NCBI GenBank assembly: GCA_030390025.1
Contig: CM059437.1
Location: forward strand, 76,260,001-76,324,000
Reading direction: 5' to 3'
Length of the DNA: 64,000 nucleotides
From: Squalus acanthias
Taxonomy: Eukaryota
The notes under the pieces were generated by a model. It did no database searches. It was given only the letters and a program-made list of their open reading frames with translations, and had not been told where the DNA came from. The stretch's first letter is position 1. Each line of letters starts with the position of its first letter. The translations under genes were made by a program, and so were the position numbers. Below, piece after piece: positions 16,491-52,959 of the stretch.

Positions 16491-16499
16491 CTTCCTTTT

Positions 16500-16930: not shown

Positions 16931-16970
16931 CAAAAGTCTATTTAAATGTTGCCCATTGGTCAGGGATGGG

Positions 16971-17310: not shown

Positions 17311-17399
17311 TACGAATTACCCTTTCTCTCCTCTTTTCTTCCCCCACCCAACTAGTGTAGGGGCAGGAGTCATAGCTGAAAGGACTGACCAGAAAGGGA

Positions 17400-20300: not shown

Positions 20301-20650
20301 TAGGGAGGAGTTATGTTTAATACAGGAGCCACTTATACAAGGGAAGTGATACCAACCCAGAGAATCTGAATCAGACAGACGTCTACTACACTGTCAAAAT
20401 GCAGATTATAGACCAGCACACACGATATGCCATAAGCTGCAGCCCCAAAACTGGTTTGCTTTTGGAAATAGATTTTAAGCAGCTAGACATTGCTGAACAA
20501 TTGATTAAAGGAACATTACAACCAAAGGTTAAAGCCAAATTACCCATTTCAAATTGAACTAATTGGGACCTCAGACAAAGCAATGTTAACATGCAAATAG
20601 CAATCCCAATTCTCAACTGTCTCCTGTACACTATATCCAACTGTGCCGAG
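17400..20650 (-). pseudogene. Possible decayed multi-exon gene, tentatively ZP-N-repeat-like (one per unit)
   Basis: At least nine minus-strand G|GTRA donor sites, a signal-peptide-like first segment and Cys-containing fragments; reading frames are broken by stops and indels that vary between units. Confidence 0.35.
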
Positions 20651-20973
20651 GAACCAATCCAACTTTACAAGTTGCAAAAAAAGTTTAAAAACTAGACCCT
20701 AGTAATGTTGCAAGCTGGCAGCAACTAAAAGCAGTTTCCATTAGTGCAATATAAGAGCAGTTAGCTGCATTCCAGATGAACATGCTCATCAAGATCTACA
20801 CAATCATTTAAATAACCAATTTGCTTGCCAAAAGGTGGTATAGCACTATTGTATTAAGGGCCCACAGTCACTACATCAAGATAACCATCATGCAGTGTTG
20901 ATTTAGGAATACTGTACAGAACAAGCTCTTCCTAAAAATTCTGAGACCATGCACAAAATCTGCAAAATGTAGC

Positions 20974-20979
20974 TTTATT
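20974..20979 (-). terminator. Polyadenylation signal of ZP3-like copy 1
   Basis: AATAAA on the minus strand ~85 nt after the stop codon; conserved in all four units. Confidence 0.75.
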
Positions 20980-21064
20980 TGAGTCAATTACAACTGTTAG
21001 AAGTACATTTAACATCTAGGTTGGACAGCTTGCTTCAACTTTGGTAGTCCACCACCTTCAATGA

Positions 21065-24000: not shown

Positions 24001-25943
24001 CCTTCAGGAAGGAACCATCACACAGCTTGGGCTCATTGCCACATGGCGTACTTCAAGGTGATGCACGATTTGCTCATTGAGATCCCCTGGATAGTCAAAA
24101 AGGTTTCAAAATATACCCCCATGCAGCTTTTTCAGTAGCAAGAATATAGGTGTGCAGCCATGAGTAGCTCACAGTACAACTAGTTCTGCCAATTGTACAC
24201 AACTTCTTGCAACTACTGGTAGGGTAATTTAACTATAGCCTGGCAATTAGGGTCATCAACTCTGGTTGGCTGTATTCCTGGATGCATCACCACACGAGCT
24301 CCTGTCTCCACTATTGGTCACCCAACATGTCCATACTCAGTGCTCTAGCCCCACATCAGTTGCAAAGCAACTAGACCATTATCTGATTGGATGATTCTTG
24401 ACTGTCAAACAGCAGCAATATTTTTAGAACTAGTAAACAAAATGGTCAATGATTTTAAAAACATTTAACACCTCTAGGATTTTTCCATGCAGCAATGTCC
24501 TGGAGATATGAGTCATTAATTCCTGGAGACTCCAGAGCAATCTTGAGGGTTGGTAACCCACGAGATAAAATTCAATTTGGAATTAGACACCAGTTTGGTT
24601 ACTATGTGCAGTACCTCACTGTTCACCCATCATAGCATTGGTGTTTAAAGATTAAGCCATCATCCAACTTTAGAAAGCAAGACATTGATACTATACACAA
24701 GACCAACTTCCTGTGTACTCAAGGCAAGGGGTGGAAGAAAAGTAGTTCTCACTACATTTACCATGCACAGGCAAGAAACTCACTCCACAGCATGTCTTCT
24801 ACCTCCCCTAACACCACAAAACACACCACTCGTTATAGAAAAGTATCTCACCAGTCATTATTTTCATGGAAAAGACCAAGCTGCCATCTCCAGCCAGAAA
24901 CCCAGTTACCGGAAATGCTGTTGAGGGTACAGGTACTTCATCCCTAGAGAAAGAACAGGGACATTAACTGATGTGTCCAAATTCAGCCCGAGTGCTGGCC
25001 ACAGGGCAAGAGGTGGCTATTTTAAACTTGACTTTCAGCCAATGTGGGGTCAGGAGAAGCCAACAGCCACAAAGCAACTGGCCAAATACAGCAATTAAAT
25101 AGACTCAAGTGTCTGGACATTTTGTCTCATTACTCCAGACTTATTACAAAAGCAAAATACTGCAGATGCTGGAAATCTGAAATAAAACAAGAGATGCGGG
25201 AAACACTCATTGACCTGAAACGTTAAATGTTTCTCTCTCCATTGATGCTGCCGGACCTGAGTATTTCCAGCATTTTCCAGACGAGTGGTGTTAAAAACCA
25301 GCCAATAATATACACAAACTATGGAACCTACGAGGAGGCCACAGAGCAAGTTAGTAGTGACATTAAGGTTTACTGTGCTGAGTGAGAGATCCCCAGGCTG
25401 GGGTTGGATCTTACACTGGATAGCGACATTCCAGGCGAGTGCTGAGCTGCTCCATCCCAGAGGCTGGGCTGGCTTCATACTTCAGGTAGTTCCAGTAAAC
25501 CATCTCCTTATCGGTCACCTGAGAGGGGTAACAAAAAGGGAGGGTCAGAACTCCAGCCTGGAGTTAGGACAACAGCCCGAGCGGGCGGTAGAGCCTCTCA
25601 CACCCACCAGTCGGCCAGCCCGGCAATCCTGTAGTTCATACTGGAAGGAGAGGACTCGGGGGGAGCTGAAGCCTGAAGCAGGGCAGTTTCCCAGCCGGAA
25701 AGCCGAGGCCTCAACGCCAGCGAAGAAATCCAGCGATACAAACACAGTCAGGGTAGAGTTGCCGCAGGAGTGAGCGATGCCATGTTGAAGAACTGAAATA
25801 GAAAGAAAGTTAGAGCTGGAGAGGAGAGAAATGCATCAATTCAGAGCTACCGACCGTAAAAAAAAAATACAAATAAAACCTGTTTGTTGCTCGCCAGCCA
25901 CAACAACCACCAAGAACAGCACTAAACTCCCGAGACAAATCAT
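21065..25943 (-). CDS. ZP3: Zona pellucida ZP3/ZPC-like egg-coat protein, copy 1 (intact, 10 exons, 376 aa)
   Basis: Exons 25943-25880, 25792-25608, 25518-25415, 24943-24852, 23512-23332, 23250-23139, 22391-22300, 21775-21681, 21601-21506, 21174-21065; all GT-AG with matching phases, 1131 nt. Signal peptide MICLGSLVLFLVVVVAG; four ZP-N Cys; IHP LVFSMKIMTDDW; ZP-C Cys; ZP3-specific CDCCNSIC; furin site RHKR; EHP VGPLRV; TM VMLLATPLLACFLGVLLLSLY. Exact paralogue subtype unknown. Confidence 0.92.
24248..24560. mobile_element. Short hAT-like MITE in ZP3 intron 4 (all units)
   Basis: Degenerate TIRs TAGGGT(TG)TCAAC ... GTTGGTAACCC; clearest in unit 4 near 62034. Confidence 0.5.
25148..25280. repeat. 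Short inverted remnant of a common elasmobranch repeat, probably a Penelope-like terminal repeat (all units; related sequence at 3960-4050)
   Basis: AAATACTGCAGATGCTGGAAATCTGAAATAAAAC followed by the oppositely oriented GACCTGAAACGTTAA...TATTTCCAGCATTTTC. Family call is from recall. Confidence 0.45.
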
Positions 25944-25992
25944 TTTAGAGCAGGCTGGGCTACTGACTGCAGGAAAGGGGGGTCGAGAGCTG

Positions 25993-26085
25993 TTTTATAA
26001 CGAGCCCCATTAACACTCTGACACCTGCTCATTCAAGGTCATTTAAATTCCTGAGCCAAACCATCACTCGGACACTTGATCCAAT
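25993..26085 (-). promoter_or_regulatory. ZP3-like proximal promoter: TATA box, E-box, nuclear-receptor extended half-site, CCAAT
   Basis: TATAAAA (minus, 25993-25999) 50 nt upstream of the ATG; CAGGTG 26022-26027; TCAAGGTCA 26033-26041; CCAAT 26081-26085; all retained in the four copies. Confidence 0.65.
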
Positions 26086-26234
26086 TTACAGGCCCATTAA
26101 AAATCTGGAGAATGTGTGGTGATCACTCAGGAAAGCAACAAGGATTTAGCAACAGCGAGGGAAGGAGAAACACGTGGCGATTCACCGTCAGTTTTTTTTC
26201 ACTCAGCAAGGCTGAGGGGTTTATTCATTACCAT

Positions 26235-26884
26235 GGGCTAGAAATTCGGTGCATTTGCACCTCTCGGGGCACAAACGACTTCTTGCGCAGGCGCGGCGCT
26301 GCTAACGACTCCCGCTAAATTCAGCGGGAGTTTAGTGGTGGCGGTAAATGGTAGCGCCCCACTCCGTTGCGCAGGCGATGAGGACGTCATCAACGTGCGC
26401 AGAGCCCCGTTTTTGCCCCGCCTGCAAAATTGGCCGTGCCCCCTGAATCTGCGCCAGGGCGATGACAGCGACCGATTCAGGGGGCGGGAACGGAGCGGCA
26501 GGAGGCTCGCGGGTCGGTAAGTAAAGGGGAGGTGGTGGGTGGGGGAAAAAAATCATCCGACTTACTTGTCGCGGCCCGTTGCCTCTTTGAACGCGGAGTC
26601 CATGCCGCGATCTGGCAGCCTCTGATGCTGGCACGGCACCCCGCTCCCCGGTGGTCCAGGTAGGGCCCTGCAGAGTTGTGGGCTTGGGCCCTCCCCTTTA
26701 ATGAGGGGAGGAGCCCTTCCATGCGGCAGTGCTACGTGGCCCAGTGCATAGTGCTGCAGAACACACCGCCCCGATATTCAGCATTAGCGCTCTAAGAAGG
26801 AAGTGGAGCTCTTAAATTAGCGCTCCACCTCCCTCTTGGGGTGCTAAAACTGAAGTTACCGGTCGCTAATGAATTTTTCCCCCC
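26235..26884. mobile_element. GC/CpG-rich TIR element of the 3252/5133 family (also about 39155-39804 and 51714-52352)
   Basis: Ends GGGCTAGAAATTCGG and ATGAATTTTTCCCCCC; shares GGAAGTGGAGC..TAAAT..GCTCCAC with the 3252 element. Confidence 0.65.
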
Positions 26885-26895
26885 GTGTGTATTAT

Positions 26896-27821
26896 CAGGG
26901 CTGGCGTTAGGGTAAATGGCTTGGGTGAACTTGTATTTTGGCGCCTTTCTTTGAGATTAAGTATGTAGTAGTATTAGCAAAAGTTTCAGAAATAAAGCTG
27001 TAATCTCAAAAGTTTTTTTATAATTTAAATGATATAAAGCATAAAAAATAACAATATAGCTAAGTGACAATTAAACTAAACATTAAATTAAACACTAAAT
27101 TAAATAACAATAACAAATTTAAAAAACTTTGTTCATCAAGATATTTTGAACCACATCATGCTGGACAGACAGGATGGCCAGCAAAGATAGCCTGTTGTCT
27201 CCCATGGTCGATCGCAATATGTTTTTATGAGCTTCAATTTCAAGAAGCTCCGTTCGCTGCTCGCCACCGATACGGGCATGGTTAACAGGATCCTGAGTGC
27301 CATCCGTCGCCACCGATACGGGCATGGTTAACAGGATCCTGAGTGCCATCCATCGCCACCGATACGGGCATGGTTAACAGGATCCTGAGTGCCATCCGTC
27401 GCCACCGATACAGGCATGGTTAACAGGATCCTGAGTGCCATCCATCGCCACCGATACGGGCATGGTTAACAGGATCCTGAGTGCCATCGATCGCCACCGA
27501 TACGGGCATGGTTAACAGGATCCTGAGTGCCATCCATCGCCACCGATACGGGCATGGTTAACAGGATCCTGAGTGCCATCCATCGCCACCGATACGGGCA
27601 TGGTTAACAGGATCCTGGGTGCCATCCATGTGTGTGGGAACTTGCTCTTGGAACTTGAAGTTTGCTCTTCTTGTGCAGCACTACAGTCTGTTGGAAGCAG
27701 ACTTTGGATATTGCCAAGTTCTTGTCAGAGATCGACGTCGTTAATGTCAAACCCTCTTGACCACGTTGCCACCCCTGACCATGGTGCCCTGGGCGGGTGC
27801 CCACCTGTAAGGCCGGCCCTA
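26896..27821 (-). mobile_element. Internally deleted hAT DNA transposon (units 1-3)
   Basis: TIRs CAGGGCTGGCGTTA and TAAGGCCGGCCCTA; minus-strand remnant ALRILLTMPVSVASSERSFLKLKLIKT / LRSTMGDNRLSLLAILSV is the hAT C-terminal dimerisation domain. Confidence 0.85.
27262..27629. repeat. 46-bp minisatellite, 8 copies
   Basis: CGCCACCGATACGGGCATGGTTAACAGGATCCTGAGTGCCATCCRT repeated with an exact 46-bp period. Confidence 0.97.
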
Positions 27822-29723
27822 TATACTGTGACAAAAGCAGCCCATAACTATTCAACCTGGAATTTACAGAAACTTGCAGTACAATAATTGCCACAATTCT
27901 GTGCCCCAGTGTGTGCCCTGTATTGAGGCCTCAGCTTTACACACTATTAATGACATGCATTAAAGAATAGAGAGTTGTATATCAAAGTTAGGAGGGACAG
28001 CAAGTTACATAGATGGAGCAGGAAGTTAAAAGGACATACACAGATTAAGTGACCAGGCAAAACTCTGGCTAATGGAGTTCAGTGTGGAAATGTGGGAGGT
28101 CATCCACTTTAGATCCAAGAAAGACAAATCACAAGTATTTTCTTTATAATGAGAAATTAGGAACTCTGCAGGAGCAAAGATTTGGGTGTTTATGTAAACA
28201 ATAACTAAAGGCTAATGGACAGGTACAAAAAGTAATCAGAAAGGCTACTGGAATATTGACCTGTATCTCAAGGGGGCTGAAATACAAAGGGGAAGAGGTT
28301 ATTCTGTTGTCAAAGAAGCTTGGGCAGAGCCCATCTAGAGTACTGCATTCTGTTCTGGGTACCACAGTTCAGGCAGGATAGATTGACTGCTGAGGGGGCT
28401 ACAGTGCCAATTTACCAGAATGATACCAAGGTTTAAATAACAGGTTTCACAAACATAGCTTGCATTCCCTTTAAAAAAGATTGAGGGGTGATCTAATTGA
28501 GGTGTTTAAAATGACAAAAGGATTTGTTAGGGTAGATAGAGAAACTTCCTTTTTAGGGGAAATCTGGAACAAGGCTGCAGCAGGTGACATCAGCGACAGC
28601 TCCCAGTCCACCATTGTATCGGTAGGTCACCAAGGTTCTCCACACCAAGAACACTTGCATCTTTCCCAATGGACAGGTTTCCACAGGGTACCAGGTGCCA
28701 TAGACTGCACTCACATTGCCTTTTGTACACCCCATCACCATCCTGGCATCTGATTAGAAAGGGATTCCATTCCCCTCAGCCAGCTTGTTTGTGCCCACAG
28801 GCAGCCTTCATACAGTTCTGCCTAGTTTCCTCTCAGCAGTCACTGTTCATTCATCCTCTGCCAGTTCCATGGGCTTTATTCCAACCAGGCCATCAGGTTA
28901 CAGGCTGGCCACTGGGTCAGGTTACTGGGCAGCAACAACTATCCCCTTCAGACTTGACTCAAGATTGCGGTCATGAATCGAAGCACAGCTGGCCTACAAC
29001 AAAAGTCTATTTAAATGTTGCCCATTGGTCAGGGATGGGGTGTCAGCTTGGCTCAGTTGGTAATGTGCTCACCTCAGTCAAAAGGTCATGGCTTCAAGCC
29101 ACCACTTCGAGTGCAGTACTGAGTGTAATCTTATGCTAGTGAACTGAGACCCTGTCTGCCTGTTTAAGTGGTCATAAAAGATCCAATGGCACTATACAAA
29201 AGGAATGGGGGACGGTGCCTGGTCAACATTTGTCCCTTAACTAACACCAACCAGATTAACTGGTCATTACTCCAATTGCTTTTTGTTGGAATTTGGCTGC
29301 CACTTTGCTTACATAACTACACTTAAATAATTCATTGGCTGTGAAATCCAGTGAATGAAAATGCCAGTTCTTACTTACGAATTACCCTTTCCTCTTTTCT
29401 TCCCCCACCCAATTAGTGTAGGGGCAGGAGTCATAGCTGAAAGGACTGACCAGAAAGGGATGCAAGAGTAGGTTAACTTGGAAATACTGGTGACTTTTGT
29501 TGCAACATTAGATTTGACATCTGCTTGCAGCAACTGGTTACATTTAAAATGTGCTTTTTCTAGGCGTGTGAGCATTAAATGCTCACATTTTTCTGTTAAA
29601 ATTGGGATTAATTAAAATATAACTAGTATACAATATATAGACTAACTTATCTTGTGGCAGGTATGCAACTTCAGGTGAGGGCAGACAATGATGGGCACCA
29701 GAACTCTGCCAATTGCAAAATGG

Positions 29724-29991
29724 AGAAGTCTGCTTTCTTGCATCTCTGTAGATACTTGATGTCTGTTGATATGCGCGATCTTCTTGGAGATCCTCTCCAC
29801 TTTGAGCCGGTAGTTTGTGGTGTCGATAATGGCCATGATGCGGAGAGATGCAAGAAAGCAGATCTCCGCATCATGGCCACTATCGACACCACAAACTGCC
29901 GGCTCAAAGTGGAGAGGATCTCCAAGAAGATCGCGCATATCGACACAGACATCAAGTATCTACAGAGATGCAAGAACGCAGATCTCTGCAT
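29724..29991. mobile_element. 268-bp palindromic insertion with 14-bp target-site duplication, probably Penelope-like element derived
   Basis: TSD CAATTGCAAAATGG at 29710-29723 and 29992-30005; inverted arms 29729-29846 and 29863-29982; empty site in units 1 and 3. Confidence 0.85.
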
Positions 29992-31303
29992 CAATTGCAA
30001 AATGGCCAGCAGAGGGTGTCTGAGCAATGCATTTTCCTTCTGTAAATTACCTCAATAGGTGAAGGGAAGAGAAAAGTTAGAGCCCTTTCCACACCACTCA
30101 GATGGATGAAATTGCCAATTTTGTAACAAATGTATGAAAAGGACAGAAATCAGCCCCATTAAGCCAACCTCAATGTTATCACATCCATAACTAGGCCATC
30201 TCCTGGACTGGGCAAATTAAGCCCCCCTATCTGCCAACTCAGGAAAAGCAGAAATACCTTTGACAACTTAAGGGGGGAAAAAAGGGAGTGGAGTAAAACT
30301 CCAGGAATATGCAGTGGCCCATGATCTCAAATCACAACTAACTATCAACTTACCTTCTACAAATCAAAATGTCCCTTTGTCAGGAACTAGTTAAATTCCT
30401 TTTTTTTAAAAAAAAACTGTAGAGACTCCTTACCCACTAGATCTTGAGCCTGTTTGAGGCTCTAAAAAGAAATCCTTCCTGACATTTAACCTAACTTTGG
30501 CCATGATTTTATATACATGCACACCCAGCTCAGATCATCTATCAACAGACGGAGTCCAATCCTATCATTTTAAAGACCTCAAATCATTTGAGGAAAGTAG
30601 GTTGGGGTGGGGAGGAAAGTTACCTAAAGGCACGAAAAGGGGTGGGTGGGTCTCCTGGTTCAAAAAGGAGAACCAAGGGCAGTTTGGATTCCATTCTGGT
30701 GCTACCCTTCCCCACAAGGCTGCTTGACCCTACTCCCAATATTGCCAGATCCCAGCAATCCCCAATACGGCCAGACTGTTCCCCTCAAGACTTCTCCCTA
30801 GACTGCCTCCACTCCCAGATCCTAGGACCCCCCCCCCCCCGCCATCTCCATCCTTTGATCTAGACTGCATTCCTACTGCTTCCAATCCCAGAACCACCCC
30901 TAATGTTCAGAGATATCCCTCCAGTGTTGCCTGATCCCAAGACCCCTTTACGAATGATTGGATTTCAGGATGCTCCCAAACCCTGCCCCTCAAAATACTG
31001 CAATACTAGAGACCACCATCCCAATGCTCCTAGAATCCAAGACCACCCCCAATGCATATAGTGTCACTGGTAATACTACTTAGCATAACACCCCTATTTT
31101 GACCTTCAACAGTGCTACAGCAGATCTGAGTGTATAGATGTTGCCCCCCAAAAAAAGTCAAAACCTACCACATGTCCTTTTTAAACAAAGTACATATTTC
31201 TGTTGCTGCCTGTGACTCGACCAATTTAGTGCAAAGGTCAACTTTATGGTGGAATTGCTCTCCTAAAAAGTACACATTTCTTCAGTTGAACATGGAGCTT
31301 TAA

Positions 31304-31750
31304 CATAAACATAGAAACTAGGAGCAGGAGTAGGCCATTCGGCCCGTCGAGCCTGCTCCACCATTCAATACGATCATGGCTGATCATCCAAATCCAGTAC
31401 CCTGTCCCTGCTTTCTCACACAGAATCCCCATCGAGCCTGCACTGACACATATCCCACCCTATCCCCGTAACCCCACGTATTTAATTCCCCCTAACATAT
31501 CCCATCCTATCCCCGTAACCCCACATATTTAATCCCCCCCTAACACTAAGGGTCAATTTATCATAGCCAAATCAACCTAACCCGCACATTTTTGGACTGT
31601 GGGAGGAAACCGGAGCACCCGGAGGAAACCCACGCAGACACGGGGAGAATGTGCAAACTCCACACAGACAGTAACCCGAGGCCAGATTCGAACCCGGGTC
31701 CTTGGCGCTGTGAGGCACCAGTGCTAACCACTATGCCACCGTGTTGCCCA
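31304..31750 (-). mobile_element. HE1-like V-SINE (tRNA head, V domain, CR1 tail), private to unit 2
   Basis: Reverse complement of the element at 41423; interrupts GGAGCTTTAA|ATTCAC, which is contiguous in the other units. Confidence 0.9.
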
Positions 31751-33803
31751 TAAATTCACATTATAGGGACCCTGGAACTTTGAGAAGGTACTATTGGCAT
31801 TCAGTTGAAATTAGACCATCTCACCTTTTACTCGGGGTACTGAAACTGCAGATTAGTGTTAAACCCATCATATGAAAATGTTGCACTGATGCAGTCAATT
31901 ATTCTTACTAGTTGTCTGCTATATTTTGGGTTGGTGTTCAGAAGGGGCCTTCATTTTCCAAGTGGGAGAAGGCATATGCAGAAAAATTGGTATAAATTCC
32001 AGTCAAAGGCCACATCTTTCAGTGCAAAGCATTCAGGATGGCAGCACTCACCTGAATTAATGAATCAGCTGGCTTCAACCAACCATTTTCATAAATATTT
32101 CATCGAATGAAAAAGGATTCAGGCCTCAAATAACTGAGTGAGTTTACACTTTATGGACCAAGTGGGTAGTTTACCAACTTTGTGCTTTTACAAATGATAT
32201 TCAATAGTGTGGAGAATTAGAAAGGATTGCAAAATCACAAGTATTGTAGTAAATTATTGGCTGATTGCTGTATATTTCAGCCAAGCAATATCAAAAATCA
32301 CCTTCATTCACCATCAAATGTCACCAAACCAGTTAATTTGTTTCTCAAACCAAGAAATCTGGAACCAGCAACTTCCACAAAATGAACCAAAATTGCTCAA
32401 ATAATTTCTGCAGTTTAAGCCACCATTTTCTTCTACTTAGTATGTACAGCCAAACCGAACGTTTATAACAAGTGTAACAAAATGCAATCTTAACCAGGGT
32501 GTCATGTTGAATATTAGATCTGTGAAGCCAGTGTCTTACAGCTTCAGCAAGATATATTTTCACCTCTGATGGAGTAAATTGTCCATTGCTGTAATACAGG
32601 CAATCAGCTCTAGATTGCAGTGAATATTAGAAGTCACAATGTCCTGGCTTACTCCTGAGCAATATCACAGGAAAGCCACTAGTAAATAGAAAGCATCTCT
32701 TTAGTGGGCATCAAACCTTTTTTGCATTGAGAGAGACTTGTGGCAGTGTTTCAGTGAGGAGACAAGCAAGATTGAGGCCCACATGGGGTCAGACAGGATT
32801 GTCATTATTACCAGAGGCTACATTCAAGTTAATTTGTAGGTAGAGAGGCTGAATGGGCTAGAGCACATTCTACTGTCACTGCATTAACTTGACTAAAAGG
32901 AGAGGTTTACTAGACAAATTCATTGACAAAATGACAGCTTGCCAATTCATATCTGGTGTTATACTAAAGAGATCACCTTTCATAAGATTGGAGAAGCATG
33001 TGATTTTAGCATCAGTTAGCAGGGGGGGGGGGGGTTGCCCACTATTACAGTAGCATGATAGGTGGGGAGGAGTTATGTTTAATACAGGAGCCACTTACAT
33101 ACAAGGGGAGTGATACCAACCCAGAGAATCTGAATCAGACAGACATCTACTACACTGTCAAAATGCAGATTATAGACCAGCATACAAGATATGCCATAAA
33201 CTGCAGCCCCATAACTGGTTTGCTTTTGGAAATAGATTTTAAGCAGCTAGACATTGCTGAACAATTGATTAAAGGAACATTACAACCAAAGGTTAAAGCC
33301 AAATTACCCATTTCACATTGAAACCTCAGACAAAGCAATGTTAACATGCAAATAGCAATCCCAATTCTCTCCTGTACATTATATCCAACTGTGCCGAGGA
33401 ACCAATCCAACTTTACAAGTTGCAAAAAGTTTACAAACTCGACCCCTAGTAATGATGTTGCAAGCTGGCAGCAACTAAAAGCATTAGTGCAATACAAGAG
33501 CAGTTAGCTGCATTCCAGATGAGCATGCTCATCAAGATCTACACAATTTAAATAAACAATTTGCTTGCCAAAAGGTGGTATAGCACTATTGTATTAAGGG
33601 CCCACAGTCACTACATCAAGATAACCATCATGCAGTGTTGATTTAGGAGTACTGTACAGAACAAGCTCTTCCTAAAAATTCTGAGACCATGCACAAATCT
33701 GCAAAATGTAGCTTTATTTGAGTCAATTACAACTGTTAGAAGTACATTTAACATCTAGGTTGGACAGCTTGCTTCAACTTTGGTAGTCCACCACCTTCAA
33801 TGA

Positions 33804-36800
33804 TCAGCAGCTATCGTGTACATGCCCGATCTTCCATTTGTACAGGCTTAGGAGCAGGACCCCCAAAAAGCAAGCTAGCAGTGGAGTAGCCAAAAGCATT
33901 ACTCTTGATTCTCTGTTTAAAAAAAAAGGTTGTCAGTCAAGAATTGCTCAATCAAATGTATCTACCATAAGTTGTCAGTCAAGAATTGCTCAATCAAATG
34001 TATCTACCATAAGAAATCTCAGTAATATACATGGGAACATTGAAGTCAGTGTTGGGGGTAGAGTGGTAAAGAATTACCTAAATTAACAGCTAGCAATCAA
34101 TTACTATATGCTGTGAACAAGGTTATTTTAGGCCAAGAATCTATATAGGATCCAACACAATAAGAATTTAAAAATTCTACAAGTACAATTGAAGCAGTTG
34201 TCAATTTAATCTGATCAAATAGGCTTCTGCTACATTAGTCAGATTTTAGCCAATGGTCTGGATACTTCCACTGTTGTTAGGAGTAATTAATGTCAACAAA
34301 TTGGATAAGTCCCATTAGTTGAGAGTAAGAAATGGCTTGTCCCTGACTGGATGTTTTATAGCCCTTCAAGGCAGGCATTAGCCATGTTAGGAACAATCTT
34401 TTACAGTATCCTCATTTGAAGTACATTGCCAATTTACCTCTTTGAATCGTGGCTGAAGTTCTGGATCCAGACTGGGCACTGTGCACTCTCAATGGACCAA
34501 CTTTAATTATGTGACTAATACCAGTTTTTGATTCTAAAAAAGGAATTTAAAAAGTTAGCACACAAGTTCTAGAATACTGTACATTCAGCTATTTAGTTAA
34601 TGGAATAGTACCTTGGGCTCGTTTATGGCGAGATTGGATAGGCTGGCAGATTGAGTTACAGCAGTCACACAGGGAACTTTGTAATGGGGCATCCAAGAGC
34701 TGCCAACTAAACAGAATTATACAAGTAACAAACATTCTACTAGAGGGGATTTATATAAATCTAAGAAATGGGACCTCCATTGATTAGAAGTACTAGGAAA
34801 TGTCTTCCTATGATTCTTCTAGACAATAAGCATGTCTGGAAGTTCAGTAGTTTTTGTTCATGCTCTTAATCAGCTCTACATTTGTTTCACCATCTAAGAA
34901 TGCATGTAGATTATTCATATTACCAAGTGAATATTCTCTATTCAACTTAAGGTGGTGCAATAATTTCAGGCTTGCCAGGCACTCATTGGGTGGGGGGGGG
35001 GGTTTAAGAAAGAGGGATAAAATAAGCCTAGTTAAATTCAATAAGTTTTACTCCAGCTATTGTTCTAGAAAGGCACCCAAGACACCACATTAAATTTTAA
35101 AGTGATCTTTTCTTCATCTGCCCATTCATCTACAGGGCCCACTAATCATGCAAGCTTTAATGCTGGCCAAAAAAGCCTACTCAAAAACAAAGGCACAAAA
35201 CATCAAAAAAGGCACAAAACATCTAAGGACACTTTTGCTACTCACCTTTCAGTTTGCTGGTCAAAAGAACATGCTTTGTGTAAAAGACTTGCATCCCAAT
35301 TAGGGTCCCATACCAAAGCTTTACAGTGTATATAAATCTGTAGAAAGTGAATATTGTGCATCATTAAGTGCAGTCTATGTCAATACACATCTCTTGCATA
35401 ATGTACAGTATGGTTCCAAGTAAAACTCATCTTCAAAGCTGATATCTATGACCTAGTTGTTTTGACTTGGCTTATTAGGGTCAGTTTATGGCTGACTTGA
35501 AGGATCCTATCTGGCATTTTATTCTAAAATCTAAATTGCAAGGAATGACTACAAATGCCACTTTAAAAATCCAGATAATTTGCTCAATTTCAGTGGGGTG
35601 ATTTAACAGTTGTCAAATCTAGCTTAATCTCAAGGTAGATGGCAATTGTGCCTTTTGGTACAATAGTATTAAGAACAAGCCCACAGAATGGCTGCCAACA
35701 AGTCAGTCCATTTGAACTAGCAAAAGTTGAAGCTACATTGGAAGTGATAAGGCACCAAAAATCTTTGCAAACAACTGTATGGAGTTATGTTACAGATCAG
35801 CTATGCCCTTATTGAAGTGGAACAGGCTTGAGGGACTAAATAGCCTACTCCAGTTTCTAATCCAGTTAGTAGTAAAGCAAGTGGCAGAAGTATCTTAAAA
35901 TGGACAGTACCTTTAATTGTGACAGTTTTAATAGTGAACTAAGCTGATCAACTATGCTCAAAGGACTTCAATGAGAATTGCATGTATTTTGAGAATTGCA
36001 TGTATGAGTTTCACATTTATGGTGCATAGAGGACAGCAACTCAGCATTAGATTAAAAACTTGCTTAGTGTATCTTTAATCATGCATCAAGTTTTCCAAAC
36101 TTACATCAGTTTCCTCCAGACCAATGAATTTAAATGCCTGCACAACAAACTGAAGGTGTGACCCATCACTTCTGGGCAAGTACTTGGAATTTCCAGTTTG
36201 CCCATCAACAAGACATCTATAGGAACAGGAAAAAAAAGTTTAACCCACAACCAAGTTACTAATTTGGTAAATATCACTATCCTGTCAGCCTCATACCCAT
36301 AGTTGTTTACGATGGTATAATTCTCTGGAGATTTGTCCAGTGAGCTTGTCGGGGTGGCGATACATTCTTCCATATAGAGGCGGAGGTCCTGGTGATATGT
36401 GGCAATGACAGAGGCTTCTAGGTTAATGGAAGCGCCCAGGAAGAATACAGAATCTGGCCTTTCAGCAGTCCAATCATCTGCAGCAGGAAGTTGCATACAT
36501 TATTCCAACAGTCCACAATTGTCTATAGTCAAGTATGAATGCTCACCCTTTTGTTTTAGCAACAAAACCATCAACATCTAGACTAAGCAAGAGGGGTCTG
36601 GCTAGGAGAAAGCAGTTACCATAGTGTACTTGAACTACATAAACCACTTCCTTGGAGATCAAATCAGCCTATACTGCAGGGATGCAGGTCTTTCCACTAG
36701 TGGGGAATGAAGTCAGTGAACCTGCAAGGAGTTTAAAAATCAACACATCTATTCATAATTCAGATGTCATCAGGGGCTACTAATGCAGCATGAATTGGGA

Positions 36801-38863
36801 TCAATGCTGTGGAAGAGATGCAAGTACTGTGTTGTCATAACCACCACACCACTGCAAAGTGATTGCTGACTTGCAACACAAGTGTCAGCACCATTGGGTC
36901 CAAACCAGACTAGAGCAGAGCAATTTGAAATTCCTTCAGGAAGGAACCATCACACAGCTTGGGCTCATTGCCACATGGGGTACTTCAAGGTGATGCACGA
37001 TTTGCTCATTGAGATCCCCTCGATAGTCAAAAAGATTTCAAAATATACCCCCATGCAGCTTTTTCAGTAGGAAGAATATAGGTGTGCAGCCATGAGTAGC
37101 TCACAGTACAACTAGTGCTGCCAATTGCACACAACTTCTTGCAACTACTGGTAGGGTAATTTAACTATAGCCTGGCAATTAGGGTCATCAACTCTGGTTG
37201 GCTGTATTCCTGGATGCATCACCACACGAGCTCCTGTCTCCACTATTGGTCACCCAACATCTCCAAACTCAGTGCTCCAGCCCCACATCAGTTGCAAAGC
37301 AACTAGACCATTATCTGATTGGATGATTCTTGACTGTCAAACAGCACCAATATTTTTAGAACTAGTAAACAAAATGGTCAATGATTTTAAAAACATTTAA
37401 CACCTCTAGGATTTTTCCATGCAGCAGTGTCCTGAGATTCATCATTAATTCCTGGAGACTCCAGAGCAATCTTGAGGGTTGGTAACCCACGAGATAAAAT
37501 TCAATTTGGAATTAGACACCAGTTTGGTTACTATGTGCAGTACCTCACTGTTCATCCATCATAGCATTGGTGTTTAAAGATTAAGCCATCATCCAACTTT
37601 AGAAAGCAAGACATTGATATTATACACAAGACCAACTTCCTGTGTACTCAAGGCAAGGGGTGGGAGAAAAGTAGTTCTCACTACATTTACCATGCACAGG
37701 CAGGAAACTCACTCCACAGCAGGTCTTCTACCTCCCCTAACACCACAAAACACACCACTCGTTATAGGAAAGTATCTCACCAGTCATTATTTTCATGGAA
37801 AAGACCAAGCTGCCATCTCCAGCCAGAAACCCAGTTACCGGAAATGCTGTTGAGGGTACAGGTACTTCATCCCTAGAGAAAGAACAGGGACATTAACTGA
37901 TGTGGCCAGCACTCAGGCTGAATTTGGACACAGAGCAAGAGGTGGCTATTTTAACTTGACTTTCAGCCAATGTGGGGTCAGGAGAAGCCAACAGCCACAA
38001 AGCAACTGGCCAAATACAGCAATTAAATGGACTCAAGTTTCTGGACATTTTGTCTCATTACAATAGCAGAATACTGCAGATGCTGGAAATCTGAAATAAA
38101 ACAAGAGATGCAGGAAACAAACACTCATTGACCTGAAACGTTAAATGTTTCTCTCTCCATTGATGCTGCCGGACCTGAGTATTTCCAGCATTTTCCAGAC
38201 GAGAGTGGGGTTAAAAACCAGCCAATAATATACACAAACTATGGAACCTACGAGGAGGCCACAGAGCAAGTTAGTAGTGACATTAAGGTTTACTGTGCTG
38301 AGTGAGATATCCCCAGGCTGGGGTTGGATCTTACACTGGATAGCGACATTCCAGGCGAGTGCTGAGCTGCTCCATCCCAGAGGCTGGGCTGGCTTCATAC
38401 TTCAGGTAGTTCCAGTAAACCATCTCCTTATCGGTCACCTGAGAGGGGTAACAAAAAGGGAGGGTCAGAACTCCAGCCTGGAGTTAGGACAACAGCCCGA
38501 GCGGGCGGTGGAGCCTCTCACACCCACCAGTCGGCCAGCCCGGCAATCCTGTAGTTCATACTGGAAGGAGGACGACTCGGGGGGAGCTGAAGCCTGAAGC
38601 AGGGCAGTTTCCCAGCCGGAAAGCCGAGGCCTCAACGCCAGCGAAGAAATCCATCGATACAAACACAGTCAGGGTAGAGTTGCCGCAGGAGTGAGTGATG
38701 CCATGTTGAAGAACTGAAATAGAAAGAAAGTTAGAGCTGGAGAGGAGAGAAATGCATCAATTCAGAACTACCGACCGTAAAAAAAAATACAAATAAAACC
38801 TGTTTGTTGCTCGCCCGCCACAACAACCACCAAGAACAGCACTAAACTCCCGAGACAAATCAT
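33804..38863 (-). pseudogene. ZP3: ZP3-like copy 2, frameshifted in exon 2
   Basis: GACGACTC (38571-38578) replaces AGGACTC (+1 nt), giving ...SPRVVLLPV* with TGA at 38556-38558; it also carries the last-exon 1-nt deletion. The other exons are collinear with copy 1. Confidence 0.8.
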
Positions 38864-40178
38864 TTTAGAGCAGGCTGGGCTACTGACTGCAGGAAAGGGG
38901 GGTCGAGAGCTGTTTTATAACGAGTCCCATTAACACTCTGACACCTGCTCATTCAAGGTCATTTAAATTCCTGAGCCAAACCATCACTCGGACACTTGAT
39001 CCAATTTACAGGCCCATTAAAAATCTGGAGAATGTGTGGTGATCACTCAGGAAAGCAACAAGGATTTAGCAACAGCGAGGGAAGGAGAAACACGTGGCGA
39101 TTCACCGTCAGTTTTTTTTCACTCAGCAAGGCTGAGGGGTTTATTCATTACCATGGGCTAGAAATTCGGTGCATTTGCACCTCTCGGGGCACAAACGACT
39201 TTTCGCCCGGGTGCGGCGCTGCTAACGACTCCCGCTAAATTCAGCGGGAGTTTAGTGGTGGCGGTAACCGGTAGCGCCCCACTCCGTTGCGCAGGCGATG
39301 AGGACGTCATCAACGTGCGCAGAGCCCCGTTTTCGCCCCGCCTGCAAAATTGGCCGTGCCCCCTGAATCTGCGCCGGGCGATGACAGCGACCGATTCAGG
39401 GGGCGGGAACGGAGCGGCAGGAGGCTCGCGGGTCGGTAAGTAAAGGGGAGGTGGTGGGTGGTGGGAAAAAAATCATCCGACTTACTTGTCGCGGCCCGTT
39501 GCCTCTTTGAACGCGGAGTCCATGCCACGATCTGGCAGCCTCTGATGCTGGCACGGCACCCCGCTCCCCGGTGGTCCAGGTAGGGCCCTGCAGAGTTGTG
39601 GGCTTGGGCCCTCCCCTTTAATGAGGGGAGGAGCCCTTCCATGCGGCAGCGCTACGTGGCCCAGTGCATAATGCTGCAGAACGCACCGCCCCGATATTCA
39701 GCGTTAGCGCTCTAAGAAGGAAGTGGAGCTCTTAAATTAGCGCTCCACCTCCCTCTTGGGGTGCTAAAACTGAAGTTACCGGTCGCTAATGAATTTTTCC
39801 CCCCGTGTGTATTATCAGGGCTGGCGTTAGGGAAAATGGCTTGGGTGAACTTGTATTTTGGCGCCTTTCTTTGAGATTAAGTATGTAGTAGTATTAGCAA
39901 AAGTTTCAGAAATAAAGCTGTAATCTCAAAAGTTTTTTTATAATTTAAATGATATAAAGCATAAAAAATAACATTATAGCTAAGTGACAATAAAACTAAA
40001 CATTAAATTAAACACTAAATTAAATAATAACAAATTAAAAAAACCTTGTTCATCAAGATATTTTGAACCACATCATTCTGGACAGACAGGATGGCCAGCA
40101 AAGATAGCCTGTTGTCTCCCATGGTCGATCGCAATATGTTTTTATGAGCTTCAATTTCAAGAAGCTCCGTTCGCTGCT

Positions 40179-40500
40179 CGCCACCGATACGGGCATGGTT
40201 AACAGGATCCTGAGTGCCATCCGTCGCCACCGATACGGGCATGGTTAACAGGATCCTGAGTGCCATCCATCGCCACCGATACGGGCATGGTTAACAGGAT
40301 CCTGAGTGCCATCCGTCGCCACCGATACGGGCATGGTTAACAGGATCCTGAGTGCCATCCGTCGCCACCGATACGGGCATGGTTAACAGGATCCTGAGTG
40401 CCATCCGTCGCCACCGATACGGGCATGGTTAACAGGATCCTGAGTGCCATCCATCTCCACCAATACGGGCATGGTTAACAGGATCCTGAGTGCCATCCAT
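40179..40500. repeat. 46-bp minisatellite, 7 copies
   Basis: Same unit as 27262-27629. Confidence 0.97.
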
Positions 40501-41422
40501 GTGTGTGGGAACTTGCTCTTGGAACTTGAAGTTTGCTCTTCTTGTGCAGCACTACAGTCTGTTGGAAGCAGACTTTGGAGATTGCCAAGTTCTTGTCAGA
40601 GAGCGACGTCGTTAATGTCAAACCCTCTTGACCACGTTGCCACCCCTGACCATGGTGCCCTGGGCGGGTGCCCACCTGTAAGGCCGGCCCTATATACTGT
40701 GACAAAAGCAGCCCATAACTATTCAACCTGGAATTTACAGAAACTTGCAGTACAATAATTGCCACAATTCTGTGCCCCAGTGTGTGCCCTGTATTGAGGC
40801 CTCAGCTTTACACACTATTAATGACATCCATTAAAGAATAGAGAGTTGTATATCAAAGTTAGGAGGGACAGCAAGTTACATAGATGGAGCAGGAAGTTAA
40901 AAGGTCATACACAGATTAAGTGACCAGGCAAAACTCTGGCTAATGGAGTTCAGTGTGGAAAGGTGGGAGGTCATCCACTTTAGATCCAAGAAAGACAAAT
41001 CACAAGTATTTTCTTTATAATGAGAAATTAGGAACTCTGCAGGAGCAAAGATTTGGGTGTTTATGTAAACAATCACTAAAAGCTAATGGACAGGTACAAA
41101 AAGTAATCAGAAAGGCTACTGGAATATTGACCTGTATCTCAAGGGGGCTGAAATACAAAGGGGAAGAGGTTATTCTGTTGTCAAAGAAGCTTGGGCAAAG
41201 CCCATCTAGAGTACTGCATTCTGTTCTGGGTACCACACTTCAGGCAGGATAGATTGACTGCTGAGGGGGGTACAGTGCCAATTTACCAGAATGATACCAA
41301 GGTTTAAATAACAGGTTTCACAAACATAGCTTGCATTCCCTTTAAAAAAGATTGAGGGGTGATCTAATTGAGGTGTTTCAAATGACAAAAGGATTTGTTA
41401 GGGTAGATAGAGAAACTTCTAA

Positions 41423-41845
41423 TGGGCAACACGGTGGCATAGTGGTTAGCACTGGTGCCTCACAGCGCCAGAGACCCGGGTTCGAATCTGACCTCGGGTG
41501 ACTGTCTGTGTGGAGTTTGCACATTCTCCCCGTGTCTGCGTGGGTTTCCTCCGGGTGCTCCGGTTTCCTCCCACAGTCCAAAAATGTGTGGGTTAGGTTG
41601 ATTTGGCTATGATAAATTGACCCTTAGTGTTAGGGGGGATTAAATATGTGGGGTTATGGGGATAGGATGGGATATGTTAGGGGGAATTAAATACGTGGGG
41701 TTACGGGGGTAGGGTAGGATATGTGTACTGTGGGGATTAAAGCAGGGACAGGGTACTGGATTTGGATGATCAGCCATGATCGTATTGAATGGCGGAGCAG
41801 GCTCGACGGGCCGAATGGCCTACTCCTGCTCCTAGATTCTATGTT
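41423..41845 (+). mobile_element. HE1-like V-SINE, private to unit 3
   Basis: A box TGGCATAGTGG, B box GGTTCGAATC, V domain GTGTGGAGTTTGCACATTCTCCCCGTGTCTGCGTGGGTTTCCTCCGGGTGCTCCGGTTTCCTCCCAC, 3' tail homologous to the CR1 UTR at 2510-2590; absent from the other units. Confidence 0.92.
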
Positions 41846-44800
41846 TTCCTTTTTAGGGGAAATCTGGAACAAGGCTGCAGCAGGTGACATCAGCGACAGC
41901 TCCCAGTCCACCATTGTATCGGTAGGTCACCAAGGTTCTCCACACCAAGAACACTTGCATCTTTCCCAATGGACAGGTTTCCACAGGGTACCAGGTGCCA
42001 TAGACTGCACTCACATTGCCTTTTGTACACCCCATCACCATCCTGGCATCTGATTAGAAAGGGATTCCATTCCCCTCAGCCAGCTTGTTTGTGCCCACAG
42101 GCAGCCTTCATACAGTTCTGCCTAGTTTCCTCTCAGCAGTCACTGTTCATTCATCCTCTGCCAGTTCCATGGGCTTTATTCCAACCAGGCCATCAGGTTA
42201 CAGGCTGGCCACCGGGTCAGGTTACTGGGCAGCAACAACTATCCCCTTCAGACTTGACTCAAGATTGCGGTCATGAATCGAAGCACAGCTGGCCTACAAC
42301 AAAAGTCTATTTAAATGTTGCCCATTGGTCAGGGATGGGGTGTCAGCCTGGCTCAGTTGGTAATGTGCTCACCTCAGTCAAAAGGTCATGGCTTCAAGCC
42401 ACCACTTCTAGTGCAGTACTGAGTGTAATCTTATGCTAGTGAACTGAGACCCTGTCTGCCTGTTTAAGTGGTTATGAAAGATCCAATGGTACTATACAAA
42501 AGGAATGGGGGACTGTGCCTGGTCAACATTTGTCCCTTAACTAACTAACACCAACCAAATTAACTGGTCATTACTCCAATTGCTTTTTGTTGGAGTTTGG
42601 CTGCCACTTTGCTTACATAACTACACTTAAATAATTCATTGGCTGTGAAATCCAGAGAATGAAAATGCCAGTTCTTACTTACAAATTACCCTTTCTCTCC
42701 TCTTTTCTTCCCCCACCCAACTAGTGTAGGGGCAGGAGTCATAGCTGAAAGGACTGACCAGAAAGGGATGCAAGAGTAGGTTAACTTGGAAATACTGGTG
42801 ACTTTTGTTGCAACATTAGATTTGACATCTGCTTGCAGCAACTGGTTACATTTAAAGTGTGCTTTTTCTAGGAGTGTGAGCATTAAATGCTCACATTTTT
42901 CTGTTAAAATTGGGATTAATTAAAATATAACTAGTATACAATATATAGACTAACTTATCTTGTGGCAGGTATGCAGCTTCAGGTGAGGGCAGACAATGAT
43001 GGGCACCAGAACTCTGCCAATTGCAAAATGGCCAGCAGAGGGTGTCTGAGCAATGCATTTTCCTTCTGTAAGTTACCTCAATAGGTGAAGGGAAGAGAAA
43101 AGTTAGAGCCCTTTCCACACCACTCAGATGGATGAAATTGCCAATTTTGTAACAAATGTATGAAAAGGACAGAAATCAGCCCCATTAAGCCACCTCAATG
43201 TTATCACATCCATAACTATGCCGTCTCCTGGACTGGGCAAATTAAGCCCCCCTATCTGCCAACTCAGGAAAAGCAGAAATACCTTTGACAACTTAAGGGG
43301 GGAAAAAAAGGGAGTGGAGTAAAACTCCAGGAATATGCAGTGGCCCATGATCTCAAATCACAACTAACTATCAACTTACCTTCTACAAATCAAAATGTCC
43401 CTTTGTCAGGAACTAGTTAAATTCCTTTTTTAAAAAAAAAACTGTAGAGACTCCTTATCCACTAGATCTTGAGCCTGTTTGAGGCTCTAAAAAGAAATCC
43501 TTCCTGACATTTAACCTAACTTTGGCCATGGTTTTATATACATGCACACCCAGCTCAGATCATCTATCCAACAGACGGAGTCCAATCCTATCATTTTAAA
43601 GACCTCAAATCATTTGAGGAAAGTAGGTTGGGGTGGGGAGGAAAGTTACCTAAAGGCACAAAAAGGGGTGGGTGGGGCTCCTGGTTCAAAAAGGAGAACC
43701 AAGGGCAGTTTGGATTCCATTCTGGTGCTACCCTTCCCCACAAGGCTGCTTGACCCTACTCCCAATATTGCCAGATCCCAGCAATCCCCAATACGGCCAG
43801 ACTGTTCCCCTTAAGACTTCTCCCTAGACTGCCTCCACTCCCAGATCCTAGGACCCCCCCCATCTCCATCCTTTGATCTAGACTGCATTCCTACTGCTTC
43901 CAATCCCAGAACCACCCCTAATGTTCAGAGATATCCCTCCAGTGTTGCCTGATCCCAAGACCCCTTTACGAATGATTGGGAGCATCCTGAAATCCAAACC
44001 CTGCCCCTCAAAATACTGCAATACTAGAGACCACCATCCCAATGCTCCTAGAATCCAAGACCACCCCCAATGCATATAGTGTCACTGGTAATACTACTTA
44101 GCATAACACCCCAATTTTGACCTTCAACAGTGCTACAGCAGATCTGAGTGTATAGATGTTGCCCCCCAAAAAAAGTCAAAACCTACCACATGTCCTTTTT
44201 AAACAAAGTACATATTTCTGTTGCTGCCCGTGACTCGACCAATTTAGTGCAAAGGTCAACTTTATGGTGGAATTGCTCTCCTAAAAAGTACACATTTCTT
44301 CAGTTGAACATGGAGCTTTAAATTCACATTATAGGGACCCTGGAACTTTGAGAAGGTACTATTGGCATTCAGTTGAAATTAGACCATCTCACCTTTTACT
44401 CGGGGTACTGAAACTGCAGATTAGTGTTAAACCCATCATATGAAAATGTGGCACTGATGCAGTCAATTATTCTTACTAGTTGTCTGCTATATTTTGGGTT
44501 GGTGTTCAGAAGGGGCCTTCATTTTCCAAGTGGGAGAAGGCATATGCAGAAAAATTGGTATAAATTCCAGTCAAAGGCCACATCTTTCAGTGCAAAGCAT
44601 TCAGGATGGCAGCACTCACCTGAATTAATGAATCAGCTGGCTTCAACCAACCATTTTCATAAATATTTCATCGAATGAAAAAGGATTCAGGCCTCAAATA
44701 ACTGAGTGAGTTTACACTTTATGGACCAAGTGGGTAGTTTACCAACTTTGTGCTTTTACAAATGATATTCAATAGTGTGGAGAATTAGAAAGGATTGCAA

Positions 44801-46369
44801 AATCACAAGTATTGTAGTGAATTGTTGGCTGATTGCTATATATTTCAGCCAAGCAATATCAAAAATCACCTTCGTTCACCATCAAATGTCACCAAACCAG
44901 TTAATTTGTTTCTCAAACCAAGAAATCTAGAACCAGCAACTTCCACAAAATGAACCAAAATTGCTCAAATAATTTCTGCAGTTTAAGCCACCATTTTCTT
45001 CTACTTAGTCAGTACGTACAGCCAAACCGAACGTTTATAACAAGTGTAACAAAAATGCAATCTTAACCAGGGTGTCATGTTGAATATTAGATCCGTGAAG
45101 CCAGTGTCTTTCAGCTTCAGCAAGATATATTTTCACCTCTGATGGAGTAAATTGTCCATTGCTGTAATACAGGCAATCAGTGCTAGATTGCAGTGAATAT
45201 TAGAAGTCACAATGTCCTGGCTTACTCCTGAGCAATATCACAGGAAAGCCACTAGTAAATAGAAAGCATATCTTTAGTGGGCATCAAGACTTTTTTGCAT
45301 TGAGAGAGACTTGTGGCAGTGTTTCAGTGAGGAGACAAGCAAGATCGAGGCCCACATGGGGTCAGACAGGATTGTCATTACCAGAGGCTACATTCAAGTT
45401 AATTTGTAGGTAGAGAGGCTGAATGGGCTAGAGCACATTCTACTGTCACTGCATTAAGTTGACTAAAAGGAGAGGTTTACTAGACAAATTCATTGACAAA
45501 ATGGCAGCTTGCCATTCATATCTGGTGTTATACTAAAGAGATCACCTTTCATAAGATTGGAGAAGCATGTGATTTTGGCATCAGTTAGCAGGGGGTTGCC
45601 CACTATTACAGTAGCATGATAGGTGGGGAGGAGTTATGTTTAATACAGGAGCCACTTACATACAAGGGGAGCGATACCAACCCAGAGAATCTGAATCAGA
45701 CAGAAGTCTACTACACTGTCAAAAATGCAGATGAAAGACCAGCATACAAGATATGCCATAAGCTGCAGCCCCAAAACTGGTTTGCTTTTGGAAATAGATT
45801 TTAAGCAGCTAGACATTGCTGAACAATTGATTAAAAGGAACATTACAACCAAAGGTTAAAGCCAAATTACCCATTTCACATTGAAACCTCAGACAAAGCA
45901 ATGTTAACATGCAAATAGCAATCCCAATTCTCTCCTGTACATTATATCCAACTGTGCCGAGGAACCAATCCAACTTTACAAGTTGCAAAAAGTTTACAAA
46001 CTCGACCCCTAGTAATGATGTTGCAAGCTGGCAGCAACTAAAAGCATTAGTGCAATACAAGAGCAGTTAGCTGCATTCCAGATGAACATGCTCATCAAGA
46101 TCTACACAATCATTTAAATAACCAATTTGCTTGCCAAAAGGTGGTATAGCACGATTGTATTAAGGGCCCACAGTCACTACATCAAGATAACCATCATGCA
46201 GTGTTGATTTAGGAGTACTGTACAGAACAAACTCTTCCTAAAAATTCTGAGACCATGCACAAATCTGCAAAATGTAGCTTTATTTGAGTCAATTACAACT
46301 GTTAGAAGTACATTTAACATCTAGGTTGGACAGCTTGCTTCAACTTTGGTAGTCCACCACCTTCAATGA

Positions 46370-52729: not shown

Positions 52730-52959
52730 CGCCACCGATACGGGCATGGTTAACAGGATCCTGGGTGCCATCCGTCGCCACCGATACGGGCATGGTTAAC
52801 AGGATCCTGAGTGCCATCCGTCGCCACCGATACGGGCATGGTTAACAGGATCCTGAGTGCCATCCGTCGCCACCGATACGGGCATGGTTAACAGGACCCT
52901 GAGTGCCATCCATCGCCACCGATACGGGCATGGTTAACAGGATCCTGAGTGCCATCCAT
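52730..52959. repeat. 46-bp minisatellite, 5 copies
   Basis: Same unit as 27262-27629. Confidence 0.97.

Follow-up and report, generated by a model that had tools for sequence, protein, structure and literature searches.

The C-terminal propeptide of ZP precursors is removed at a furin site, and a precursor that lacks the membrane helix (TM) fails to be secreted if its EHP or IHP carries a mutation as well (PMC8391237). Mammalian egg-coat proteins and uromodulin require their membrane anchor for incorporation, and no polymerisation at the cell surface is seen with uromodulin truncated behind the EHP (PMC7737619). The engineered or pathogenic forms UMOD-EHP, human ZP2 R698X and ZP1 D592Gfs*29 all have a stop between the furin site and the anchor, as do genes of the array described here, and they do not polymerise at the surface or are associated with a thin or absent zona (PMC8391237; PMC7737619). 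ZP3 of the stickleback has no TM and is made in the liver; it is functional and a main protein of the coat (PMC8362008). The chicken ZP3 precursor is a homodimer, both subunits of which may join the filament (10.1101/2023.06.21.544075). Catfish carry tandem ZP3 arrays with pseudogenes (PMC13704971; PMC6262864), and the ZP3 subfamilies ZP3.1, ZP3.2 and ZP3.3 have been defined by tree and synteny (PMC6262864).

The window analysed here, a 64-kb stretch of DNA, contains four tandem ZP3-like genes, all on the minus strand, in units of ~12.5 kb (Table 1). Since the window end cuts unit four, further copies may follow beyond 64000. Every unit has a ten-exon gene with GT-AG introns. The order in copy 1 is signal peptide, ZP-N, ZP-C, the furin site RHKR, EHP, TM and a short tail, and it is the only copy with the C-terminal TM of a membrane-anchored ZP precursor. 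Copies 3 and 4 fit the TM-less type of teleosts, having lost the TM and retained the furin site and EHP. They are thus like stickleback ZP3 in being precursors without TM (PMC8362008). Unlike the situation in stickleback, however, anchored and anchor-less copies lie adjacent to each other, with an overall identity of 98-99%; TM loss accompanies liver expression in stickleback, whereas the proximal promoter is unchanged in the array; and stickleback ZP3 is proven in the coat, whereas the short form of the array is a candidate coat protein (PMC8362008). Unlike the UMOD-EHP, ZP2 and ZP1 truncations, the short copies have a natural, anchored twin as their neighbour in the array.

Table 1. Positions of the features of the ZP3-like array, in coordinates of the window.
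Feature	Position	Strand	Remarks
Tandem array	15860..64000	.	~12.5-kb units; unit four truncated by the window end
Copy 1	21065..25943	-	Intact, 10 exons, 376 aa; ancestral form
Copy 2	33804..38863	-	Pseudogene: frameshift in exon 2 and last-exon deletion
Copy 3	46370..51428	-	Exons 1-9 intact; ENQE* end; 344 aa; stop 46464-46462
Copy 4	58688..63715	-	Exons 1-9 open; ENQE* end; 344 aa; stop 58782-58780; Y176C, S327I
AAA run, last exon of copy 1	21166..21168	-	Contains the base absent from copies 2-4
Flagged site, copy 2	33899..33915	-	Acceptor CAG; AA run 33906-33905; stop TAA 33901-33899
Exon 9, copy 2	34438..34533	-	Encodes the EHP strand; retained 5' of the new stop
Exon 9, copies 1, 3, 4	21601-21506, 47058-46963, 59378-59283	-	EHP strand
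Exon-2 lesion, copy 2	38556..38576	-	Compound, net +1 near 38574; stop at codon 74; bounds from the exon map
Exact 42-nt tandem duplication	33929..34013	.	Immediately upstream of the last acceptor of copy 2
Proximal promoter, copy 1	25944..26230	-	TATAAAA, CACGTG, CAGGTG; almost the same across the four copies
AATAAA polyadenylation signal, copy 1	20974..20979	-	Contigs stop shortly past the signal
AATAAA, copies 2, 3, 4	33718-33713, 46284-46279, 58602-58597	-	Found in all four copies

The neighbourhood of the array at 1-16000 consists mostly of repeats, and a plus-strand ORF at 3-2498 (831 aa) resembles a LINE reverse transcriptase in its motifs. Upstream of the gene, a ~46-nt repeat array (27261-27629) sits inside an apparent transposon remnant and has counterparts near 40178-40500 and 52729 in other units. 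Intron 5 measures 81 nt in copies 1 (23251-23331) and 4 (61055-61135), 80 nt in copy 2 and 82 nt in copy 3; in copy 1 it is in frame without stops, yet contigs splice it out. Intron 9 of copy 1 lacks ~144 nt at a C-rich run (21275-21300). The 42-nt duplication of copy 2 we take, from its motif, to be the likely branch-point region.

Within the window, exon 5 matches PF00100 (ZP-C) with an E value of 4.6e-12. The match of exon 2 to PF23344 is weak and below the cut-off (E 0.0037); in the Chiloscyllium orthologue P0012 the same family is found above it. The protein has the ZP-N and ZP-C module without additional N-terminal domains, as is characteristic of ZP3, and with orthologues as queries the closest solved structures are ZP3 of fish and chicken, by sequence as well as by fold. 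The structure 8BQU is that of ZP3 in a fish egg-coat filament, and the array protein shares the ZP3 fold. The ZP3-type CDCC..C cluster after ZP-C, which is invariant in the alignment and aligns to chicken ZP3, is present in copies 1, 3 and 4, as is the furin site RHKR. Matches at E <= 1e-40 come from sturgeons, turtles and a monitor lizard, with none from mammals; the sequences suggest a clade other than that of mammalian ZP3. The closest orthologue was modelled with a mean pLDDT of 67; in that model a strand at 313-325 (block pLDDT 68-75) follows the furin site, and a helix spans 335-369. The strand we take to be the EHP from its position and motif. As the strand comes before and the helix after the new stop, the short form would retain the EHP and lose the anchor.

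Orthologues named 'zona pellucida sperm-binding protein 3-like' in sharks and rays are 66-90% identical to copy 1 and match the array in Cys pattern, furin site, EHP and TM. They include those of Pristiophorus (UPI00398F410E), Heptranchias (XP_067862415.1), Pristis (XP_051888331.1) and Callorhinchus; further ones are found in Polyodon, Acipenser, turtles and Varanus. Identity to copy 1 reaches 90.5% in the Pristiophorus (sawshark) model and 86% in that of Heptranchias, which makes a shark the likely source of the window. The models of Heptranchias, Narcine and Polyodon also indicate multiple copies per genome. Thirty elasmobranch sequences were fetched and 23 aligned, seven isoforms or near duplicates being omitted. 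Most of those aligned retain the TM (17 of 23 sequences, from 16 species), whereas three of the four copies in the array end ahead of it. Chiloscyllium plagiosum (XP_043571241.1) and C. punctatum (GCC20271.1) have models, as annotation only, that stop right behind the EHP and so do not reach the TM; two Narcine bancroftii models (XP_069789522.1 and XP_069789516.1), likewise known from annotation only, end at ENQ, before the TM. Hypanus is annotated with isoforms that differ in the last exon. Three other Narcine models (P0017, P0008, P0018) omit the EHP exon yet retain the TM, which is unusual if real, and the Heterodontus orthologue is annotated as a galactosylceramide sulfotransferase isoform (P0004, P0014-P0016), two adjacent loci having likely been merged.

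The difference between the copies lies at the start of the last exon. Its acceptor motif has four matches in the window, all on the minus strand, at 21177, 33915, 46478 and 58796, after which copies 2-4 read AA where copy 1 has AAA. Exon 9 ends in phase 1, so that copy 1 continues as ENQRVMLL into the TM and copies 2-4 end as ENQE*, 38 residues past the furin site; the furin site and EHP are retained and the TM is lost. The best 19-residue hydropathy is 2.43 in copy 1, compared with 0.21 in copy 3 and 0.49 in copy 4. The last exon of these two short copies has an additional 3-nt deletion, in frame with the former TM, that takes away one Cys codon. The first-pass annotation had proposed these two endings, and motif positions and frames bear them out; it had also described the 3-nt deletion correctly, and translation agrees with its claim that the AG two bases downstream gives ESRVMLL, in the TM frame, in copies 2-4.

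Which state came first can be judged from the orthologues. The four-residue spacing of copy 1, [E/D]N[Q/H]x, is found in 14 of the 17 TM-bearing sequences, the exceptions being Pristiophorus, Heterodontus and Scyliorhinus canicula, and the ESR reading is found in none of the 17. By this comparison of sequences, use of the upstream CAG and presence of the extra A represent the ancestral state, and loss of the A the derived one, because most orthologues share the spacing of copy 1 and none reads ESR. The reverse, with copy 1 as a mutant and the +2 AG as the true acceptor, is ruled out by the alignment. Nor is the extra base of copy 1 a sequencing error, since orthologues and run X9 (see below) carry the same spacing or base. 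All 17 TM-bearing sequences have the Cys that copies 3 and 4 have lost; as it is invariant there, the former TM frame appears to have been released, not maintained. That the 3-nt deletion stays in frame might be taken to prove a maintained TM frame; we rejected this argument, the Cys being invariant and the deletion a single event.

The deletion has a counterpart in sequencing runs from outside the window. The set comprised 22 runs, none of them annotated as RNA. Four, X6-X9, are RNA-like, RNA being guessed from exon joins at GT-AG ends; they belong to one study with the tissue unrecorded. Their contigs were aligned to copy 1, and the contig depths of 7-22 were not treated as expression levels. 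Eight of the nine introns of copy 1 appear in these contigs as listed joints, and intron 1 is seen via adjoining pieces (X9 record 20). The last joint of X6, X7 and X8 contains six additional letters and rebuilds to the upstream CAG minus the A, i.e., to ENQE*; its shorter side is 30 (X6, one below the 31-letter rule), 96 and 98 letters long. X9 record 17 matches 20919-21174 gap-free, which means that the A is present and the form is that with TM. The length of this record fits exon 8 (30), exon 9 (96) and 256 letters more, and splicing at the upstream CAG is inferred from these lengths. Assembly has thus kept the path with the deletion in three of the four RNA-like runs and also in the DNA run X1, from a different study, whose record 1 spans the site without the A, all 8 gap letters being placed elsewhere. 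Since the deletion is present in an outside DNA contig as well as in spliced contigs, it is no feature of chance or assembly. A contig of X10, from another organism, extends just 4 letters past the site; it is compatible with the deletion allele and provides a hint only. With both alleles among the spliced contigs, the earlier proposal that the array encodes anchored and anchor-less precursors gains support.

The contigs are not, however, copies of the window genes. All five runs (X1, X6-X9) have a 3' UTR variant (21047/46352) missing from all four window copies; the 3-nt deletion private to copies 3 and 4 is missing from the listed pieces of all five, the RNA-like four included; and the exon-2 piece listed in three of these runs has the allele of copy 1, not that of copies 2-4. 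These results point to contigs from other haplotypes or a close relative. Deletion-bearing messages exist; the RNA-like runs are no proof that copies 3 and 4 themselves are transcribed. Contig assemblies of this kind cannot phase sites more than ~30 bases apart. Alongside the spliced contigs, X6, X8 and X9 have contigs at 21574-22329 in which intron 8, or a portion of intron 7, is retained; these represent unspliced RNA or DNA carry-over.

The derived truncation is thus real and transcribed, and the short form may have a function. Our preferred reading, to which we would give an even chance, is that the intact deletion copies yield a secreted anchor-less precursor that is tolerated and used. 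The one-base deletion in the last exon would end the frame past the furin site and EHP, ahead of the membrane helix, in messages spliced at the normal acceptor. Stop codons in a last exon escape NMD, and the message would be translated. The short precursor would probably be secreted because the signal peptide and EHP remain. It would be made in the same cells as the copy 1 product, likely oocytes, because the proximal promoters are near identical and no ERE with 0-1 mismatch was found near the copies. It would likely be tolerated, since truncation leaves the mature protein as it was and the anchored copy remains. Entry into the egg coat would most plausibly be by pairing with an anchored subunit to form the ZP3 precursor dimer, or else by extracellular cleavage as in teleosts. 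In favor of this reading we count the derived state of the deletion, the joints of X6-X8 and contig X1, the shortage of replacements between copies 3 and 4 and the silent substitutions of the contigs (see below), the retained EHP, the functional TM-less ZP3 of stickleback, the homodimer of chicken ZP3, and the TM-less models of Chiloscyllium and Narcine. The anchor-dependent incorporation of mammalian ZP proteins and uromodulin weighs against the short form entering the coat, and the death of copy 2 and Y176C in copy 4 weigh against its being tolerated and used.

The main rival is birth-and-death decay, which we find less likely. The deletion would then be a loss of function in redundant duplicates. 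The short precursor might be made and secreted without being incorporated in the coat, and the three deletion copies would represent different stages toward a pseudogene. The frameshift of copy 2 fits this explanation: with a stop at codon 74, neither the anchored nor the short form can come from that gene. The anatomy of the flagged site given in the first-pass annotation stands; the exon-2 lesion of copy 2 comes in addition to it. Decay would also account for the loss of the invariant Cys codon and for Y176C in copy 4, at a position that is Tyr in 21 of the 23 aligned sequences. Outside the array, it is favored by the requirement for an anchor in mammalian ZP proteins and uromodulin (PMC7737619), by the pseudogenes in fish ZP3 arrays (PMC13704971), and by the furin site of the two TM-less Narcine models, which is RHKQ, not RHKR.

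Against decay stands a shortage of replacement changes between copies 3 and 4. Disabling changes in the region of the mature protein are confined to copy 2, with none in exons 1-9 of copies 3 and 4. Between copies, replacement differences amount to 0.27-0.53% versus 1.4-2.5% in introns. Copies 3 and 4, both with the last-exon deletions, differ by only 3 replacement and 4 silent changes, where ~11 replacements are expected from the introns excluding the converted intron 3. This shortage has a Fisher p of 0.021 without intron 3 and of 0.0004 with all introns, and the silent rate (1.55%) is close to the intron rate (1.42%, intron 3 excluded). The direct replacement-versus-silent test for the same pair gives an omega of 0.26 and does not reach significance (p 0.075). 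All four coding substitutions listed for exons 1-9 in the RNA-like contigs are silent. As the two copies have in common the pair of last-exon deletions and also three coding sites, their separation is likely younger than the stop.

The age of the deletion bears on how these numbers are read. The last exon has no substitutions in 182 sites among copies 2-4, where the intron rate predicts 5.7 (p 0.003). The spread of the deletion may therefore be recent, possibly by conversion as the decay explanation would have it, and the signal of selection may predate it. Divergence among the same copies is nearly normal in intron 9 (9/417) and the 3' flank (14/540) compared to the other introns (103/3304), which restricts any recent conversion tract to under ~300 bases; only such a short tract could make the deletion young. 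Intron 3 (24944-25414 and equivalents) has a long run of sites that group copy 2 with copy 4; this block is likely a conversion tract, the copies exchanging sequence. Intron 3 also contains a highly repeated element near 25116-25299. The deletion would have had one origin and then spread by duplication or conversion. Its standing as the retained path in most of the RNA-like runs and in X1 also speaks against decay.

Could copies 2-4 still make anchored protein by splicing further downstream, at the +2 or +11 AG, often enough to matter and perhaps under regulation? The first-pass annotation had suggested that tandem-acceptor choice possibly sets the form; we consider this improbable. Downstream AGs are found at +2, +9/+10 and +11/+12 of the last acceptor. 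Those at +2 and +11 restore the TM frame in copies 2-4, and that at +12 keeps it in copy 1. A message spliced at a downstream AG would be free of a premature stop, hence of a trigger for degradation; the old TM frame has no substitutions in 82 sites among copies 2-4 (2.6 expected, p 0.08), and the sole deletion within it is in frame. Moreover, the residues missing from the Pristiophorus model, as annotated, are exactly the four that splicing at +12 would take out. Against these points, the upstream CAG is used in all four RNA-like runs (three as joints, one inferred from lengths), and none of the joints listed for X6-X9 is at +2 or +11/+12, in contigs of a kind that drop rare variants. The +2 and +11/+12 acceptors are both GAG, a triplet found at none of the nine acceptors in copy 1, where only CAG and TAG occur. 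The absence of ESR from the TM-bearing orthologues and the invariance of the deleted Cys also argue against rescue. The array resembles NAGNAG-type tandem 3' splice sites in having close AGs at the acceptor, but the spacing is not the usual 3 nt, the downstream AGs are GAG or AAG, and downstream use is absent among the joints listed (X6-X9). In human, the minor sites of tandem pairs are usually at least 10 times weaker and largely noise (PMC8055015). Minigene work supports scanning for the first AG, yet has cases of distal use too (PMC2875228).

A specialised soluble form of the teleost pattern, with the anchor-less copies expressed in liver or another tissue and the product transported to the egg, has equally little to recommend it in our estimate. 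Precedents are stickleback ZP1 and ZP3, which are without TM and transcribed in the liver (PMC8362008), and avian ZP1, which is liver-made (PMC6626044). At this locus, however, the ~290 bp proximal promoter is virtually unchanged, no copy being more than 2 substitutions and a few small indels away from the majority. Its TATAAAA we take to be a TATA box, and CACGTG and CAGGTG E-boxes. An ERE palindrome with 0-1 mismatch was found near none of the copies, the upstream region of copy 4 being cut by the window; one of the 18 sites with 2 mismatches in the window lies 1.46 kb upstream of copy 3. Liver secretion of the short form thus gains no support from the promoters.

Lastly, a homopolymer error (AA for AAA) or a falsely duplicated array, which a one-base difference in an A run and the false tandem duplications that assemblies can hold might bring to mind, is very improbable indeed: both alleles are found outside the window, which largely refutes an indel artefact, AAA agrees with the orthologues, and the introns differ by 1.4-2.5% between copies and have private indels.

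Returning to the tolerated and used precursor, a wider version of that reading is that sharks and rays are repeatedly losing the ZP3 anchor, the array being a first, teleost-type step that precedes a move to the liver, with an anchor-less majority riding in the dimer into the coat. We regard this extension as speculative and rather doubtful. The TM-less models of Chiloscyllium and Narcine belong to the same gene family and have stops at positions different from those of the array, the Narcine pair ending one residue short of the ENQE* stop. The differing positions indicate that the anchor losses are likely independent.

TM-less ZP3 is already known in teleosts; what is new is a mixed array with a one-base difference, together with a possible repeated loss of the anchor in elasmobranchs. 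Our search, which covered mostly papers outside subscription journals, found none on shark ZP3 anchors or on such an array, so that absence from print is not established. Nothing on TM loss was found in PMC10140178, PMC6262864, PMC13361971, PMC8455134 or PMC13704971.

Mammalian ZP proteins need an anchor to polymerise, whereas many fish ZP proteins are without one, and the origin of this change is unsettled. Anchored and anchor-less genes that are one decisive base apart and have a common proximal promoter lend themselves to a clean comparison, here in a lineage whose egg-coat genes our search found undescribed. Should the short form be mere waste, the locus is a case of ordinary decay in a young gene array. 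If the wider version of the preferred reading is true, anchor-free growth of ZP filaments could be studied in the array on a natural pair of genes that are 99% identical.
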